DNA from: a bacterium
GTDB lineage: Bacteria > Sysuimicrobiota > Sysuimicrobiia > Sysuimicrobiales > Humicultoraceae
NCBI GenBank assembly: GCA_041497675.1
Contig: JBGQGY010000047.1
Span: 1 to 23,758 of the forward strand
Direction of reading: 5' to 3'
DNA: 23,758 nucleotides
Under the pieces are notes generated by a model. The model did no database searches. It was not told the origin of the DNA and saw only the letters and a program-made list of their open reading frames with translations. Positions within the stretch are counted from its first letter, which is position 1; each line of letters begins with the position of its first letter. This document shows, piece after piece, positions 8,382 through 14,825 of the stretch. A program made the translations under genes and the position numbers.

Positions 8382-8491
8382 CTGCGTGGGCTGAGGCGCC
8401 GGCATGACGACGCCGATGGTGTGGACGGTTCCTCGCTCGTGCTGTCACGCAGCCGGACCCGCAGGCGCGTTCTCGATAGCGTAAGATTCAC

Positions 8492-8526
8492 GAAAACAGA
8501 ACGCGCCCAGGCAACGCCTGGACGCG
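8492..8526 (-). terminator. Intrinsic terminator for the minus-strand gene 8556-8951
   Basis: Minus strand reads CGCGTCCAGGC-GTT-GCCTGGGCGCG (11 bp with one G-U pair), then TTCTGTTTT. Confidence 0.7.
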
Positions 8527-8555
8527 CCTTGTGCACAATGTCGGTTGCAAACGTT

Positions 8556-8951
8556 TTACGTCAGGTGGAACACCCCAAGCGTCGCCACGCGAGTGTGTTC
8601 TTTGGTCAACACGGCCTCGAGATCCAACCCCAAGAGACCCGCAGCGGCCGCCAGATAGAACAGCGTCGCGCCGATCTCGGTCTCGAGCACCTCACGGCAC
8701 TTCTCGCACAGGGTGCCGTTCACGTGCGTCTGCATCATCTCGCGGATTTCAGCCAGGCTCAGTTCGGCGGGAAACCGCTGGCGGCTGGCGTCGATGCTGA
8801 TACATCCGCAGTTCGTCACGGACTTTGCAATGGCGCGGTTGACACGAGCGGCGGCTTCAGACAGCTTGGTTTGGACATCGAGGATACTGCGATGGCGGAT
8901 CAGGTACTGACTGACGGTGTCCTGGAACGTGTCCTGCCGAATCTCAGCCAT
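8556..8951 (-). CDS. Conserved small Cys-containing protein with a MazG-like C-terminal helix (family found next to radA in Clostridia, often labelled DUF1573)
   Basis: RHRSILD..TKL.E..ARVNRAIAKSVTNCGC, LCEKCRE and EIGATLFYLA. Has its own SD (GAGGTGA), consensus promoter and terminator. Confidence 0.8.
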   Translation of the reverse strand: MAEIRQDTFQDTVSQYLIRHRSILDVQTKLSEAAARVNRAIAKSVTNCGCISIDASRQRFPAELSLAEIREMMQTHVNGTLCEKCREVLETEIGATLFYLAAAAGLLGLDLEAVLTKEHTRVATLGVFHLT

Positions 8952-9009
8952 GCCCGATACTCACCTCACCGAGCCGCGAAGACATAGCGTATCTGCAAAG
9001 ACGAGTGTC

Positions 9010-9155: not shown

Positions 9156-10238
9156 ATGCGCGACCTAATCTTGAAGGGTGTCGGCGCGCTGCTTGGCGGC
9201 CTGATGGGTTACGAAGCAGCGGTGCTGGCCATCGCATGGAACCCGGCGATCCAGGCTGCCGGGTTCCTGCTCTACATTGTCGCCGTGGTCATCGGCGGCG
9301 TCGTTGGCGTGATCGTCGCGCCGGCGGCCGGGCGGGGATTCGTCGCCTCAATGGCCTGGGTGCTGCGCGGTCTCGCGAGTCTGTCACTGCACGACCTCAT
9401 CCTGGGCGGAGTCGGACTGATCGTCGGTCTCCTCCTGGCACTGTTCGTCGGGTACCTGCTTGCAGAGCTACCGCTCATCGGGCCCTACATCCGACTCATT
9501 GCGGGTCTCGTCTTCGGCTACCTCGGCCTGCACATCGCGTTACAGCGACGTGACGAGATCGCCGGCATCGTGTCGCGCGAACGCGGTGCGCCGCAGAGCA
9601 AGCACACCCAGGGGACGCCCAAGCTCCTCGACACCAGCGTGATCATCGATGGCCGCATCGTCGACATCGTGCTGAGCGGATTTCTGGAGGCGCCCCTGCT
9701 CGTGCCGCGATCGGTGCTTGCCGAACTCCAGCGGATTGCCGACTCGTCCGACCTGCTCCGGCGAAACCGGGGACGCCGTGGCTTGGATATCCTCAACCGG
9801 CTCCGCCGCGAGCTCGACGCCGTCAACATTGTCGACGATCACGCGGCGCCCGGCACTGACGTCGACGCTCAACTGGTGACGCTGGCGAAAGCCCAGCACG
9901 CCTGGGTGGTCACCAACGACTTCAACCTCAGCAAGGTAGCCGAACTTCAGGGCGTCCGCGTGCTCAACGTGAATGAGCTGGCGCAGGCCCTGCGACCGAC
10001 GGTCCTGCCGGGCGAAGAACTCTCCGTGCAGGTGATCCGCGACGGTAAGGAGGCCGGTCAGGGCGTGGCCTACATGGAAGACGGCACGATGATCGTCGTC
10101 GAAGGCGGCAAGCGGCTGATCGGCGAGACCTCCGGGGTCATCGTGACCAGCGTCTTACAGACGTCGGCCGGCCGCATGATCTTCGCACGGCCCAAGTCCA
10201 CCGAGTCCACCGGACCCTCGACCGTTCAAAAACGATGA
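9156..10238 (+). CDS. yacL: Membrane-anchored PIN/TRAM domain protein (YacL family)
   Basis: Four N-terminal hydrophobic helices, PIN motifs [11 protein letters not shown] and VTNDFNL, TRAM motifs [20 protein letters not shown] and [13 protein letters not shown] 9156 follows GAGGGG. Confidence 0.9.
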
Positions 10239-11383
10239 GTGTCGGCGCTATCGTGGTGGCGGCCGGCGACGGGACCAGGCTGCCGGGCCCGGTTCCCAAG
10301 CCGCTGCTTCCGCTCGGCCGCAAGACCGTGCTCGAGCGGGCGCTGGCCGCCTTCCAGGCCTGCGATCGTATCGACGGGGTCGTGGTGGTCGCGGGCGCCG
10401 CGTACACGGATGCGGTGACCCAGTTGGCGCCGCCCAAGGTCACGGCGGTGGTGGCGGGTGGCCGGACGCGGCGCGCATCGGTCGCCGCCGGGCTCAGCGC
10501 GCTGCCGGATGCGCAGTGGGTCGTCGTGCATGACGGCGTCCGCCCTTTCGTCACGCCGGCGCTGATCGAACGGGTGCTTGCCGCCGCCGTGACGCATGGC
10601 GCCGCCACCGCGGGGTTGCCTGTCTCCGACACCGTGAAGGAAGTGCAGGACGACCGGGTGTCCCGCACGATCCCCCGCGACGGTCTCTACCTGGTGCAAA
10701 CGCCGCAGGCGTTTCGCGCAGACCTGCTGCGTGAGGCCCACGACCGCGTGCCTCTCGAGGCCGCGATCACCGATGACGCGGGACTCGTCGAGCATCTCGG
10801 GCGCTCTGTGGTGGTGGTGCCGGGTGACGGGGCGAACGTCAAGGTCACGACGCCGTCTGACTATGAGATGGCGCGCCGGCAGTTCGAACGGCTCCCCGGT
10901 CTCGCCGCGCGCGTCGGGGTCGGCTACGACGTGCACCGTTTGGCCCCGGACCGGCCGCTGGTGCTCGGCGGCGTGCAGATCCCGTCGCCGCGAGGGCTGG
11001 CGGGGCACTCAGACGCGGACGTGCTCGTGCACGCGATCATGGACGCGTTGCTGGGTGCCGCGGGGCTGGCCGATATCGGCCGGCACTTCCCACCCGATGA
11101 CCCGACGTATCGCGGTGCAGACAGCATCGGGTTGCTCGAGTCGGTGGCCGCGCGCCTGCGCGCGTCGGGGTGGGCGATCGCGAACGTCGATGCCGTGGTC
11201 ACCGCCGAGGCGCCGCGGCTTGCGCCCCACGTCGACGCCATGCGCGAGCGGATCGCCGCGGCCTTGGGGGCGATGCCCGGTCAGGTGGGGATCAAAGCCA
11301 CGACCGCTGAAGGTCTGGGCGCAATCGGACGGGGCGATGGGATCGCAGCACACGCGATCGCGCTCCTCGAACGGATGGAATAG
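10235..11383 (+). CDS. ispDF: Bifunctional IspD/IspF (MEP cytidylyltransferase / MEcPP synthase)
   Basis: IspD motifs [23 protein letters not shown] and NVKVTT; IspF motifs GYDVH, GHSDADV and DIGRHFP, all in one ORF. Confidence 0.93.
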
Positions 11384-11386
11384 CGC

Positions 11387-11743
11387 ATGCGGCGGAAGAC
11401 ACGTGGACGGCGCGAACCCAGCAGAGTCCGGTCTCAGCCGCAGACCGACCTGCTGTTTCTGGAGCGAGCCGAACGATCGGATCAGATCGTGATGGAAGTC
11501 GACCGCCCGCAGGCCTTCCGACCGCGTCTCGTGGGGTTCTGGCTCGACCGGCAGTTCCACCTGATCACCCGGGTCGCCGCCACCCGGCGCGAGCACGATG
11601 CCGTCTATCACCGTGTCGTCACCGATCGTGGCGCCTTTGACCTGCGCGACGTCCGCGTGATGGATCCGGGGACGCTCCGGATTCGCCGGCGCTGGGAACT
11701 GTGCGCCGAGCTCGATGCTATGCTCATCTCGCGCCCCGGATGA
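11387..11743 (+). CDS. Hypothetical small beta-rich protein (weak resemblance to DUF6504-like proteins)
   Basis: Fills the ispDF-cysS gap almost exactly (3 nt after the ispDF stop, 10 nt before cysS) with GC-typical codons. Pattern FWLDRQFHLITRV...YHRVVTD..AFDL....WEL. Confidence 0.6.
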   Translation: MRRKTRGRREPSRVRSQPQTDLLFLERAERSDQIVMEVDRPQAFRPRLVGFWLDRQFHLITRVAATRREHDAVYHRVVTDRGAFDLRDVRVMDPGTLRIRRRWELCAELDAMLISRPG

Positions 11744-11753
11744 GGTGTCCCTG

Positions 11754-13277
11754 ATGGGTCTGGTGCTCTACAACTCGCTGACAAAGCGCAAAGACCCCTT
11801 TGAGACGCTTGCGCGCGGGGAGGTCCGCATGTACGTGTGCGGACCGAATTTGTATGGGCCGGCGCACGTGGGGCACGCCCTCTCGTACACGATCTTTGAC
11901 GTGATTCGACGGTATCTGGAATACAAGGGCTATCGCGTGCACCACGTCCAGAACTTTACCGATATCGAGGACCGGATCGTGGAGCGGGCGCGTCTGGAGC
12001 AGCGCACCATCTTCGAGATCTCGCAGGAGTACATCGACCGGTTCTTGCGCGAGATGGACGCCCTCCACATCGAACGGGCCCACCACTACCCGCGGGCGAC
12101 CGACGTGATCCCCAAGATGCAAGAAATCATCACGGCGCTCATTGCGAAAGGCCACGCCTACGTGGTCGATGGCGACGTGTATTTTCGCGTACTGTCATTT
12201 CCCCACTACGGTCAGTTGTCCGGCCGCACGCTCGACCAGATGCAGGCCGGCGCGCGCATCGAGGTCGACGAGCGCAAGGAACACCCGATGGACTTCGCCC
12301 TGTGGAAGTCCTCGAAGGCGGGCGAACCGGCGTGGGACAGCCCCTGGGGGCCCGGCCGCCCAGGATGGCACATCGAGTGCTCGGCGATGTCGATGCAGTT
12401 CCTCGGCGAGCAGCTTGACCTCCACGGCGGCGGCGACGACGTCCGGTTCCCGCACCACGAGAACGAGATCGCGCAATCGGAGGCCTACACGGGCAAGCGC
12501 CCGTTCGCCCGCTACTGGATCCATAACGCGCTGATGAAGCCTCCGGTGGGCGAGGAGATGCATCGCCACCTCGGCAACTTTGTGGCGATTCGCGAGGCCC
12601 TGACGCGGTACGACGCCGACATGATCCGGCTCTTCATCCTGTCGGCGCACTACCGCACGCCGCTGCGATGGACCGATGAGGCCGTCGATGGGGCGGCCAA
12701 GGGGTTTGAGCGACTGCGCACGGCGCTGGTGAACGCCGAGTCCGCGCTGGAGCGGATGCCCGCCGAACGCGACGGGCCGGTGGCGGACCGGGCGCGTGCC
12801 GCGCGGGCGGCCTTCGAACACGCGATGGACGACGACGTCAATACCCCCCAGGCCATTGCCGCACTGTTCGACCTGGCCGGCGACATCAACCGCGCAGCCG
12901 GTGCGGCGTTGCAGGGCGACCGCTTTGCGGCGGGTGGGCTCTCGGTGGCCACGGAGACCTTGAAGACGCTCGCCGGGGTGTTGGGATTTCGTATCGATCA
13001 GCCGCGGCTCGCATCTGACGCCGCCGAGGCCCTCGGGCGCCTGCTCGAAATGTCGCGGACAAGAGCCCCGGCGCTGTTTGCCGATGGCGCGGCGCCGGCC
13101 GATGCGGCCGCGATCGTGGCCGCACTGCTCGCGGGTCGGGACCAGGCGCGCCAGCAGCGGCGCTTCGACGTGGCCGACGAGATTCGCCGCGGGCTGACCG
13201 ACTTAGGCATTATCGTCGAAGACCTCCCGGGAGGCTCGCGGTGGAGAGTCGCGGTACGGCGAGACGCACCGGCGTAG
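11754..13277 (+). CDS. cysS: Cysteine--tRNA ligase with a non-canonical KMSKS loop
   Basis: MYVCGP, HVGH, DFALWK, GRPGWHIECSAM and FPHHENEIAQSE motifs plus C-terminal anticodon domain (ADEIR..L...GI.VED). ATG 11754 follows GAGGTG. Confidence 0.92.
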   Translation: MGLVLYNSLTKRKDPFETLARGEVRMYVCGPNLYGPAHVGHALSYTIFDVIRRYLEYKGYRVHHVQNFTDIEDRIVERARLEQRTIFEISQEYIDRFLREMDALHIERAHHYPRATDVIPKMQEIITALIAKGHAYVVDGDVYFRVLSFPHYGQLSGRTLDQMQAGARIEVDERKEHPMDFALWKSSKAGEPAWDSPWGPGRPGWHIECSAMSMQFLGEQLDLHGGGDDVRFPHHENEIAQSEAYTGKRPFARYWIHNALMKPPVGEEMHRHLGNFVAIREALTRYDADMIRLFILSAHYRTPLRWTDEAVDGAAKGFERLRTALVNAESALERMPAERDGPVADRARAARAAFEHAMDDDVNTPQAIAALFDLAGDINRAAGAALQGDRFAAGGLSVATETLKTLAGVLGFRIDQPRLASDAAEALGRLLEMSRTRAPALFADGAAPADAAAIVAALLAGRDQARQQRRFDVADEIRRGLTDLGIIVEDLPGGSRWRVAVRRDAPA

Positions 13278-14071
13278 GCGCCGGCGGCCAGGGCCGCTCC
13301 GCTGAGCGCGGCCGTGCCGAGCGTTGGGGCGAGGATCAGATCGAAGGCCGCCACCCGGTGCTGGAGGCATTACGCGCGGGCCGGCCCCTCCGCAAGCTGA
13401 TGGTGGCCAGGGGCACGAGGGGCGGGTCGCTCCACCTGATCATCGGTGAGGCCCGACGGCGCGGTGTACCGGTCCAGGAAGTCGATCCCAGTGTCATCAT
13501 CCGTCTCTCGCAGTCTCGAACCCCGCAGGGCGTCATCGCCTACGCCGCCACCCACCAGACCGTGGATCTCGCCGACCTGTTGGACTCTGCCCGCGCCCGG
13601 AGCGAAGCCCCGTTCCTGTTACTGCTCGACGGCGTCGAAGATCCGGGCAACCTGGGCGCGATCCTCCGATCGGCCGAGGCCGCCGGCGTGCATGGCGTGG
13701 TGATTCCCAGGCGTCGCGCCGCCGGTCTCAGCCCGGCGGTGGCGGCGGCGTCCGCGGGCGCGATCGAACACGTCCGCGTGGCCCAGGTCGCCAACATCGC
13801 GCAGGCGATCGAACGCCTGAAGCAGGAGGGAGTCTGGTGTATCGGCGCCGACGCCGGGGGCGCGCAGTCGATCTACGAGACGCCGCTTGTGCCGCCGGTG
13901 GCCGTCGCGGTCGGTGGTGAGGGCCGAGGGTTGTCCCGACTGGTCCGCGAGCGGTGCGATCTCGTGATGCGAATCCCGATGTACGGCACCACCTCCTCGC
14001 TCAACGTCTCGGTCGCGGCCGCGCTCGTCTTATTCGAGGTGCGGCGCCAGATGCGGGCAACCTTACCTTGA
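13241..14071 (+). CDS. rlmB: 23S rRNA (guanosine-2'-O)-methyltransferase RlmB/TrmH family
   Basis: IEGRHPVLEAL, DGVEDPGNLGAILRSA, GGEGRGL and SLNVSVA SPOUT motifs. Start uncertain (GTG 13241 overlaps the cysS end). Confidence 0.92.
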   Translation: MESRGTARRTGVGAGGQGRSAERGRAERWGEDQIEGRHPVLEALRAGRPLRKLMVARGTRGGSLHLIIGEARRRGVPVQEVDPSVIIRLSQSRTPQGVIAYAATHQTVDLADLLDSARARSEAPFLLLLDGVEDPGNLGAILRSAEAAGVHGVVIPRRRAAGLSPAVAAASAGAIEHVRVAQVANIAQAIERLKQEGVWCIGADAGGAQSIYETPLVPPVAVAVGGEGRGLSRLVRERCDLVMRIPMYGTTSSLNVSVAAALVLFEVRRQMRATLP

Positions 14072-14096
14072 CGCATTCGGATGCGGTCCATATAAT
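14068..14096 (+). promoter_or_regulatory. Sigma70/sigmaA promoter for sigH
   Basis: TTGACG (14068-14073, overlapping the rlmB stop), 17-bp spacer, TATAAT (14091-14096). Confidence 0.85.
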
Positions 14097-14186
14097 GAGA
14101 TTCAACCAATTGTGATGCGCACACGAGCCCGCACCACGCACAACGAGCGAGGCAAGTATTCCCTGACGAGCCGGAGGGGATAGCCT

Positions 14187-14825
14187 GTGGCGCTGGCGCG
14201 GCGAGAAGGCGTGGGCTACAGCGAGCTTGTCGATGAAGAACTAGTCGATCACGCGAAGGGCGGAGACGATCGCGCCGCCGAGTTCCTGATCACCAAGTAC
14301 CGCAACTTCGTCCGCGTCAAAGCCAAGGCGTACTTCCTCATCGGGGCGGACCGCGAAGACATCATCCAGGAAGGCATGATCGGGCTCTATAAGGCCATTC
14401 GTGACTTCCGCCGTGACAAGCTGTCGTCGTTCCGGGCCTTCGCCGAACTCTGCATCACCCGTCAGATCATCACGGCGATCAAGACGGCGACTCGACAGAA
14501 GCACATCCCGCTGAACTCGTACATCTCGCTCAACAAGCCGATCTATGACGAAGACTCCGACCGGACGCTGCTCGACGTGATCAGCAGCATGAAGGTCAGC
14601 GATCCCGAGGAACTGGTCATCAACCAAGAAGCCTCGGCGACGATGCGCGAGCGCATCCGCAAGAACCTGAGCGAGCTCGAGTGCAAGGTCCTGACGGCCT
14701 ACCTCGAGGGCAAGTCCTACCAGGAGATGGCGAACGAGCTCAACCGGCACGTGAAGTCGATCGACAACGCCCTGCAGCGGGTGAAGCGCAAACTCGAGCG
14801 GAACCTCGAAGGCGAAGACGCGTAA
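14187..14825 (+). CDS. sigH: RNA polymerase sigma factor SigH (Spo0H type)
   Basis: YFLIGADREDIIQEGMIGLYKAIRDF, FAELCITRQIITAIKTATRQKHIPLNSY and KSIDNALQRVKRKLE are hallmark Firmicutes SigH segments. GTG start follows GGAGGGG. Confidence 0.95.
   Translation: MALARREGVGYSELVDEELVDHAKGGDDRAAEFLITKYRNFVRVKAKAYFLIGADREDIIQEGMIGLYKAIRDFRRDKLSSFRAFAELCITRQIITAIKTATRQKHIPLNSYISLNKPIYDEDSDRTLLDVISSMKVSDPEELVINQEASATMRERIRKNLSELECKVLTAYLEGKSYQEMANELNRHVKSIDNALQRVKRKLERNLEGEDA

Follow-up and report, generated by a model that had tools for sequence, protein, structure and literature searches.

A lysine-free EMHRH loop in place of KMSKS in a cysteinyl-tRNA synthetase of Candidatus Sysuimicrobiota (CSP1-3)

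The DNA analyzed here (hereafter the window), a stretch of 23,758 nucleotides from contig JBGQGY010000047.1 of GenBank assembly GCA_041497675.1, carries a cysS gene at 11754..13277 on the forward strand, the product of which (507 amino acids plus stop) is a full-length cysteinyl-tRNA synthetase (CysRS) in which the KMSKS motif is replaced by EMHRH. KMSKS is one of the two signatures of class I synthetases, and its second lysine is a textbook transition-state residue. Judging from sequence comparison, we consider this gene to be quite probably a vertically inherited housekeeping CysRS of CSP1-3 (Candidatus Sysuimicrobiota, often labelled Armatimonadota) with a lineage-specific, lysine-free Arg/His loop. 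Because the literal KMSKS with both lysines, which is usual though not universal in the family, is absent, the enzyme is filed as a variant orthologue and not as a canonical member.

The cysS gene and its active-site residues

The cysS gene is enclosed by an intact open reading frame (ORF) at 11715..13277 (+). The N-termini of homologues match the methionine of MGLVLYN at 11754, which gives the length of 507 amino acids, and the in-frame ATG upstream, at 11715, is probably not the true start; a Shine-Dalgarno sequence, GAGGTG, is present at 11742-11747. The product scored 469.5 bits against the CysRS equivalog TIGR00435 (cut-off 340) and covered profile positions 1-464 of 466, whereas its score of 278.7 bits against TIGR03447, the profile of the cysteine ligase MshC, is under the cut-off of 485.1. 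Three Pfam domains were found above their cut-offs, namely tRNA-synt_1e (PF01406, 385.8 bits), DALR_2 (PF09190, 56.2 bits, residues 353-412) and the anticodon-binding CysS_C (PF23493, 29.7 bits, residues 452-498), the latter two being encoded at 12810..13247 (+). The AlphaFold2 model of the enzyme has a mean predicted local distance difference test (pLDDT) score of 91.5 and a predicted template modelling score of 0.88, and the structure ranked first by Foldseek is 1u0b_B, E. coli CysRS in complex with tRNACys (template modelling (TM) scores 0.77/0.85 over 503 columns), followed by other CysRS, then MshC and then MetRS.

The loop residues E268-M269-H270-R271-H272 are encoded by GAG ATG CAT CGC CAC at 12555-12569 (+), counted from 11754. 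HMMER pairs the segment WIHNALMKPPVGEEMHRHLGNF with 'rEKMSKSLGNF' of E. coli CysRS (PDB 1li5), such that the counterpart of E. coli EKMSKS is EEMHRH; codons and alignment thus agree with the original prediction that EMHRH stands where KMSKS is expected. R271 occupies the position of the second lysine, and a positively charged residue is therefore kept there. The whole remodelled loop, H257-F276 (HNALMKPPVGEEMHRHLGNF, 12522..12581, +), has two more residues before the motif than its canonical relatives and carries a clade-specific basic residue, K262, encoded at 12537-12539. Residues 271-274 form the sole internal stretch of the model with pLDDT below 50 and are probably a flexible loop modelled at low confidence. 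According to the available text of PMC11580382, the KMSKS loop is flexible and low-scoring in predicted models.

The other class I signature (HxGH) is present as HVGH, residues 38-41, within CGPNLYGPAHVGH (11838..11876, +), a segment that also holds C29 and the clade-specific N32-L33 in our alignments. We surveyed the best 150 representatives of 50%-identity clusters, drawn from a family in which 24,692 proteins match at E<=0.001. The HIGH variants among them were HIGH (45), HLGH (45), HIGN (24), HVGH (16) and HVGN (10). The earlier claim of an altered HIGH region therefore holds for the unusual preceding stretch CGPNLYGP, in which position 32 is Asn as against Thr in 148 of the 150 representatives and in 46/46 canonical loci, and not for HVGH itself, which is an ordinary variant (16/150).

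A second lysine motif is changed as well. The sequence RIVE at 11973..11984 (+) is the counterpart of E. coli 73-KIIK-76, with both lysines gone, since HMMER pairs TDIEDRIVERA with 'TDIDDKIIKRA' of 1li5. Taken together, E. coli K73, K76, K266 and K269 correspond to R74, E77, E268 and R271, so none of the four lysines is left.

The zinc site, by comparison with 1li5, is complete, in agreement with what had been predicted for it and for the anticodon domain. C209, H234 and E238 lie within WHIECS...FPHHENE (12378..12467, +), and C29, C209, H234 and E238 align to E. coli C28, C209, H234 and E238, which we take to be the zinc ligands of that enzyme. The zinc-binding Cys/Cys/His/Glu set of CysRS selects cysteine. 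In an alignment of 109 variant and canonical sequences (A2), from which the AlphaFold2 model was built, C29, H38, G40, H234 and E238 show no variation and C209 reaches at least 90% conservation; moreover, little or no variation is seen at W205 and at the C-terminal R462, D475 and D490 in variant and canonical enzymes alike.

Rarity and conservation of the loop

Among the 150 family representatives, KMSKS was read in 122, KMAKS in 13, KMAHS in five (one mis-registered as AKMAH) and RMGKS in three, and KMTRH, KMARS, KASKS, RMAKS, KMGKS, EMHKS and MMLES were each read once. Of the 150, 142 retain the second lysine and 148 a Lys or Arg at the first position; likewise, the first KIIK position is Lys in 143 and Arg in five. 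All nine variant-loop representatives that were checked passed the TIGR00435 cut-off, and KMSKS is present in 5/5 of the solved CysRS and MshC chains whose loop was examined. A full-text search found no published description of CysRS with KMTRH, KMTRS, RMTRS or EMHRH-type loops, none of the matches listed being on synthetases.

Some of the rare family members are of interest in their own right. The five KMAHS representatives (P0136, P0188, P0203, P0230 and P0266) have His for the second lysine, and in 5/5 the HIGH loop contains a Lys (CG[LM]TPK), which looks like an ArgRS-like compensation; P0266 is also fused to a hydrolase domain of the beta-phosphoglucomutase family. Representative P0255 reads EMHKS, so that the first lysine is gone and the second is kept, and has R at the KIIK position. 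Representative P0181, which reads MMLES and has HAGY for HIGH, passes TIGR00435 and looks like a degenerate paralog.

Near the enzyme in question, the loop is not rare. The protein comparison set consisted of the best 120 of 8000 scored clusters, and the loop was MHRH in 88 of them, KMTRH in 25, KMTRS in four and RMTRS in three, MHRH persisting to about 58% identity. The 88 MHRH clusters were drawn from five sources (jgi, ena, lgn, ncbi and src), and the clusters of the set that bear a name are called 'cysteine--tRNA ligase' and come from Armatimonadota metagenome-assembled genomes. A second set comprised 80 loci (+/-10 kb around cysS) with one genome per species, from GTDB representatives; here MHRH was found in 14 loci, K/RMTR[HS] in 20 and KMSKS-like loops in 46 (KMSKS 44, KMAKS 1, KMARS 1). 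The MHRH loci (L001-L011, L014, L017 and L058) belong to genomes named Armatimonadota or Ca. Sysuimicrobiota (CSP1-3), and by NCBI ranks several of them are Ca. Sysuimicrobiota (CSP1-3; Ca. Fervidifonticultor, Humicultoraceae). In answer to the check proposed earlier, the MHRH loop is conserved in related genomes.

Within these sets the motif is strongly conserved. MHRH is invariant in 88/88 MHRH-type clusters, and its codons differ synonymously between lineages (CAT/CAC, CGC/CGG and CAC/CAT). In 89 MHRH sequences, the mean frequency of the top residue is highest in loop 257-276 (0.95), followed by the zinc and active-site region with 0.87, and falls to 0.74 in the DALR and anticodon domains. 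Six MHRH pairs gave a Nei-Gojobori dN/dS (the ratio of nonsynonymous to synonymous substitution rates) of 0.08-0.17, and the KMTRS pair L012/L013 gave 0.145. By these measures, the MHRH loop is under purifying selection. It had been argued that a single sequencing error could not explain the loop, and the 88 clusters, the 14 loci and the varying synonymous codons bear this out; together with the intact ORF and the independence of the 14 assemblies, they leave practically no room for an assembly or sequencing artefact or a pseudogene.

Evolutionary history of the loop

The variant and canonical enzymes were compared position by position in 15 MHRH, 20 xMTRx (K/RMTR[HS]) and 46 canonical rows. 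Position 32 is Asn in the variant rows and Thr in 46/46 canonical rows, position 33 is Leu as against Val in 35/46, and positions 71-72 are Ile-Glu as against Val (40/46)-Asp (44/46). A two-residue insertion at positions 264-265 of the variant rows corresponds to gaps in 46/46 canonical rows. Position 262 is K/R in 35/35 variant rows and Gln in 38/46 canonical rows, and the second-lysine position is Arg in 35/35 variant rows (MHRH and xMTRx) and Lys in 45/46 canonical rows. N32, the insertion and K/R262 are thus common to the MHRH rows and all 20 K/RMTR[HS] loci, and what sets MHRH apart from xMTRx is the absence of the first lysine and His instead of Thr. A one-codon deletion, or a K-to-E change plus a deletion a few residues upstream, are equivalent descriptions of how the first lysine was lost. 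The first KIIK lysine (R74 in our cysS product) is kept in 13/20 xMTRx and 45/46 canonical rows.

A careful maximum-likelihood tree was built from 28 rows with the motif columns removed, the 46 canonical rows and the Dehalococcoidia KMTRS rows L025, L026 and L028-L032 being left out. In this tree, all MHRH rows fall in a 17-row clade (support 100/99), to which the K/RMTR[HS] rows are basal except for L012 and L013, which lie inside it. One part of the 17-row clade is a clade of 12 MHRH rows; in the other, a 5-row clade, L010 (MHRH) branches off first and L012+L013 (KMTRS) form the sister group of L017+L058 (MHRH). An approximately unbiased test rejected MHRH monophyly (p = 5.5e-5), for a group that was defined after the quick tree had been inspected. 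This quick tree (50 rows, 31 canonical loci omitted) requires two changes of the MHRH label and places L012+L013 in the same 5-row clade.

The KMTRS pair (cysS at 4298-5800 of L012 and 10001-11491 of L013) was also considered as a product of recombination. In eight of eight sliding windows, and in the neighbouring genes, the nearest relatives of L012 and L013 are L010, L017 and L058; no mosaic signal was therefore seen, and recombination was rejected as the source of the pair. Either KMTRS is a reversion from MHRH that involved a one-codon indel, or, on this topology, the loop arose two or three times. As the two forms swap in the same slot under equal constraint, this argues that MHRH and KMTRS are functionally equivalent. 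Since the sister lineages read KMTRH, KMTRS and RMTRS, the second lysine became Arg first, and the first lysine was lost later.

Separately, the Dehalococcoidia KMTRS enzymes (L025, L026 and L028-L032) hold the full package of N32, insertion, R262 and Arg. The quick tree places them with canonical KMSKS Dehalococcoidia, to which they are nearest in the C-terminal half; a mosaic, or a package that originated twice, may explain this pattern.

Genomic slot and copy number

The gene order in the window is greA, clpC, radA, a 188-amino-acid ORF, a PIN-domain gene, ispDF, orf118, cysS, an rlmB-like SpoU methylase gene and a sigma-factor gene. The upstream neighbour ispDF (10235..11383, +), a fused IspD-IspF gene identified by Pfam IspD and YgbB and by synteny, precedes cysS in 12/14 MHRH loci; L005 is without ispDF, and the contig of L058 starts 534 nt upstream. 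The downstream neighbour (13241..14071, +; the start may be after 13241) encodes an rlmB-like SpoU rRNA methyltransferase with Pfam SpoU_methylase and SpoU_sub_bind, and rlmB follows cysS in 12/14 MHRH loci, the remaining two contigs ending before it. The gene order of the Armatimonadota K/RMTR[HS] loci is the same as that of the MHRH loci. In Chloroflexota loci with canonical KMSKS enzymes, the order is PIN-(ispDF)-cysS-rlmB, and therefore the MHRH gene sits in the ordinary cysS position. By synteny, cysS occupies an ancestral clpC-radA-PIN-ispDF-cysS-rlmB slot.

No second CysRS match was found in the window, and none within +/-10 kb of cysS in the 80 loci, among which no assembly is listed twice. 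The gene is not mentioned in the main text of the paper describing Sysuimicrobiota, and K01883 or cysS was not found in 12 of the 14 supplement files of the PNAS paper on CSP1-3. A tRNA-Cys gene was found neither in the window nor in the 16 clade loci scanned.

The region before cysS was also scanned for regulatory elements. At gathering thresholds, Rfam had no match in the window, and a permissive scan of 11300-11800 gave chance-level matches (sul1, E 1.9; P18, E 9.9), so a regulatory RNA for cysS, such as a T-box leader, which would have linked the gene to the sensing of tRNA-Cys, was rejected. The 370-nt gap between ispDF and cysS was likewise rejected as a leader RNA, the gap being filled by orf118. 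The sole strong sigma-70-like promoter match in 10000-14400 is at 14068-14096 (+; TTGACG-17-TATAAT, 11/12) and just precedes the sigma-factor gene at 14187. This is consistent with one transcription unit made up of ispDF, orf118, cysS and rlmB.

The 188-amino-acid ORF (8421-8987, +) between radA and the PIN-domain gene is found at the same position in 13 clade loci, with 35-53% identity. Searches of Pfam, NCBIfam and PHROGs assigned it to no family with significance; UCR_14kD, its top match in Pfam (E 0.14), is below cut-off.

The upstream gene orf118

Directly 5' of cysS lies orf118 (11387..11743, +), which encodes a conserved protein of 118 amino acids without a family match. Its stop codon TGA (11741-11743) overlaps the cysS Shine-Dalgarno sequence, and by this arrangement orf118 is translationally coupled to cysS. 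Restricted to this clade, it immediately precedes cysS in 17 of the 80 loci, comprising the 14 MHRH loci as well as L012, L013 and L022. Its relatives form 66 protein clusters, and those with a name are all called 'hypothetical protein'. The N-terminus of the protein is variable and rich in Arg. About 95 residues form its conserved core, in which G50-F51-W52, R67, E69, R76, T79, G82, W103 and A107 are invariant, and its AlphaFold2 model is a confidently predicted six-stranded all-beta domain (pLDDT 85.6).

Searches of Pfam, NCBIfam and PHROGs, a sequence-profile search of the PDB and a Foldseek search against the PDB (0 matches at E<=0.001) gave no match for orf118, and no longer or fused forms were found, which is weak evidence. 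Two domains of unknown function (DUF) were tried and rejected. For DUF6504, an Atlas lead of 0.85 pointed to a cluster with 10% DUF6504 members, and Pfam matched 1/66 members without significance. DUF1854 was matched weakly in 27/66 members in a per-member Pfam scan (best E 0.0059), again without significance.

Proposed mechanism and alternative explanations

How a CysRS might work without either KMSKS lysine can be proposed from these data. By sequence comparison, in an ancestor shared with some Chloroflexota, the loop gained two residues and a basic residue at 262, Thr32 beside HIGH became Asn, and the second lysine became Arg, yielding KMTRH, KMTRS or RMTRS. Later, within CSP1-3, the first lysine was lost and Thr replaced by His, yielding E-MHRH. 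In the present enzyme, R271 probably takes the role of the second lysine and, in the transition state of adenylation, neutralizes the alpha-phosphate and pyrophosphate, and H270, H272 and, in most members, K262 probably supply the remaining polar or positive contacts that the first lysine made to ATP or the tRNA 3' end. The Thr32-to-Asn change would belong to this rebuilding of the ATP site, and cysteine would be activated at the intact zinc site and tRNA-Cys charged via the intact DALR and anticodon-binding domains. A general drift from Lys to Arg in a GC-rich lineage probably aided the loop change; the median composition is 1.6% K and 10.2% R in the MHRH enzymes versus 4.5% K and 6.9% R in canonical relatives, and the GC content of the window is 64-69%.

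According to the available text of PMC5059758, both KMSKS lysines of class I enzymes contact the ATP phosphates, and in a LeuRS-tRNA complex K2 contacts a phosphate and K1 contacts C75. As described in the accessible parts of PMC5660078 and PMC10655014, protein synthesis in PUREfrex was kept by the E. coli CysRS mutants K73A, K76A, K266A and K269A and by double mutants, in which persulfide synthesis and binding of pyridoxal 5'-phosphate (PLP) were lost. These mutants may serve as a precedent for lysines that are dispensable in translation.

Several points weigh against this explanation. PUREfrex is not a kinetic measurement, which limits the precedent of the E. coli mutants. The basic residue at 262 is absent in 3/88 MHRH clusters (P0042, P0075 and P0080), and K262 as an obligatory substitute for the first lysine is weakened because of this. 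In the DALR region, 96% of canonical rows have K/R at position 376 and 87% have it at position 382, whereas no MHRH row has K/R at either, and this loss could mean altered tRNA contacts; basic residues were gained in the MHRH clade at 305, 334 and 496. As well, a change from Lys to Arg at the second KMSKS lysine is strongly damaging in some other class I synthetases. Finally, CysRS is counted among the synthetases that 'often have paralogs' (PMC5388404).

The last point leads to the alternative raised in the original prediction, that the protein is a repurposed paralog, which charges tRNA poorly or not at all and has another cysteine-ligating or regulatory role, with a canonical KMSKS CysRS elsewhere in the genome. 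It lacks the class-defining lysines and, in the DALR region, two basic residues that are otherwise conserved, CysRS paralogs are frequent in bacteria with MshC as a known repurposed one (PMC5388404), to whose profile the product scores 278.7 bits, and a lineage-specific small gene, orf118, is coupled to cysS. However, the gene is in the ancestral cysS slot, which a KMSKS enzyme holds in other phyla and in which close relatives read KMTRS, and its product keeps the anticodon-binding domain, which MshC lacks. The score is above the CysRS cut-off and below that of MshC, and no part of the protein is more conserved than the loop. The lack of a second CysRS-like match in the 80 loci and the window points the same way, weakly, as each locus spans +/-10 kb. 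We therefore think repurposing improbable. Of the two alternatives first proposed, the lineage-specific Arg/His loop is borne out by clade conservation, selection, slot and intermediates, and the repurposed paralog found no positive support.

It is also conceivable that a crippled synthetase is tolerated since Cys-tRNA-Cys is made otherwise, for instance by an indirect route of the SepRS/SepCysS type, as exists in some prokaryotes. Apart from the loss of the lysines itself, nothing speaks for this explanation; dN/dS of 0.08-0.17 and a loop invariant in 88 clusters are the opposite of relaxed constraint, and the zinc-ligand positions and tRNA-binding domains are fully kept. We regard it as very improbable.

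The explanation of a housekeeping CysRS with a lineage-specific loop can be carried further. In this bolder version, the MHRH enzyme is the sole CysRS of the cell, performs adenylation via an Arg clamped between two His and is null for persulfide synthesis, and, boldest of all, orf118 is its dedicated partner; taken as a whole we hold this to be a speculative long shot. If the enzyme is the sole CysRS, neither KMSKS lysine would be needed for a class I synthetase, and interchange between KMTRS and MHRH would be possible both ways. 

Apart from this bolder version, a whole lineage whose essential CysRS has a lysine-free loop under strong purifying selection offers a natural system for what the CysRS lysines do. 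Motif-based annotation checks would wrongly mark MHRH genes as defective.

Implications for persulfide synthesis

The currently debated proposal that CysRS is also the main cysteine-persulfide synthase (CPERS) rests on four lysines, which are called highly conserved in the available portions of PMC5660078 and PMC10655014. The PLP-dependent CPERS model is that of Akaike et al. 2017, with the roles of the motifs as given in the same portions of the two papers. The original prediction, which noted the loss of the KMSK pair implicated in this activity, fits and can be extended, as KIIK is changed to RIVE too. If the CPERS model is right, the MHRH enzyme should be without PLP-dependent cysteine-persulfide synthase activity, because the four PLP-binding positions are R, E, E and R (R74, E77, E268 and R271 in the HMMER alignment to 1li5), with 0/4 lysines.

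In addition, among the 25 commonest strings of the KIIK region in the 150 family representatives, DKIIN occurs 27 times, DKIIA 24 times and DKIIK 19 times. Because DKIIK is thus read in 19/150, the label 'highly conserved', as it stands in the available text of PMC10655014, fails for the second KIIK lysine in this survey. If the bolder version given above is true, the MHRH enzymes would be natural separation-of-function variants, competent in translation and null as persulfide synthases, and would contradict the claim that persulfide synthesis by CARS is conserved in all organisms.

Comparison with known systems

Canonical CysRS, represented by E. coli CysS (1LI5, 1LI7 and 1U0B), is like the MHRH enzyme in family, domain order, zinc-ligand positions, HxGH, anticodon domain and genomic slot; the two share about 40% identity, and superposition of the model on the complex with tRNA gives TM scores of 0.77/0.85. 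However, canonical CysRS has KMSKS where E-MHRH is found here, KIIK instead of RIVE, Thr32 instead of Asn, and a shorter loop without the basic residue at 262.

The CysRS with KMTRH, KMTRS or RMTRS, found in some Chloroflexota and Armatimonadota, are closer. This K/RMTR[HS] subgroup is delimited here, and the tree places its members as the nearest relatives of the MHRH enzymes, with which they share N32-L33, the insertion, K/R262, Arg at the second lysine and the gene slot. They differ in that the first position stays basic (K or R) and Thr stands in place of the first MHRH histidine.

Outside CysRS, other essential class I enzymes use a substitute positive charge for the canonical lysine. ArgRS is naturally without a KMSKS lysine and has a compensating lysine in the HIGH loop, and Austin and First are said to have reported in 2002 that K+ acts in place of the second KMSKS lysine in human TyrRS. 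Both belong to other families, and their substitute is a lysine elsewhere or a cation, unlike the in-place Arg flanked by two His found here.

AgnB2, an antibiotic self-immunity LeuRS, carries a KQSKS loop according to the available text of PMC5059758 and thus resembles the MHRH enzyme as a natural change of the KMSKS loop in a working synthetase. As far as that text describes it, AgnB2 differs in keeping both lysines and in being a second, resistance copy, whereas the MHRH gene is in the housekeeping slot, with nothing tying it to an inhibitor.

Finally, MshC (Cys:GlcN-Ins ligase, TIGR03447) also has a catalytic domain derived from CysRS and activates cysteine. It differs in its length of about 410 amino acids, in being without the anticodon-binding domain and in keeping KMSKS, the motif that is replaced in the MHRH enzyme.

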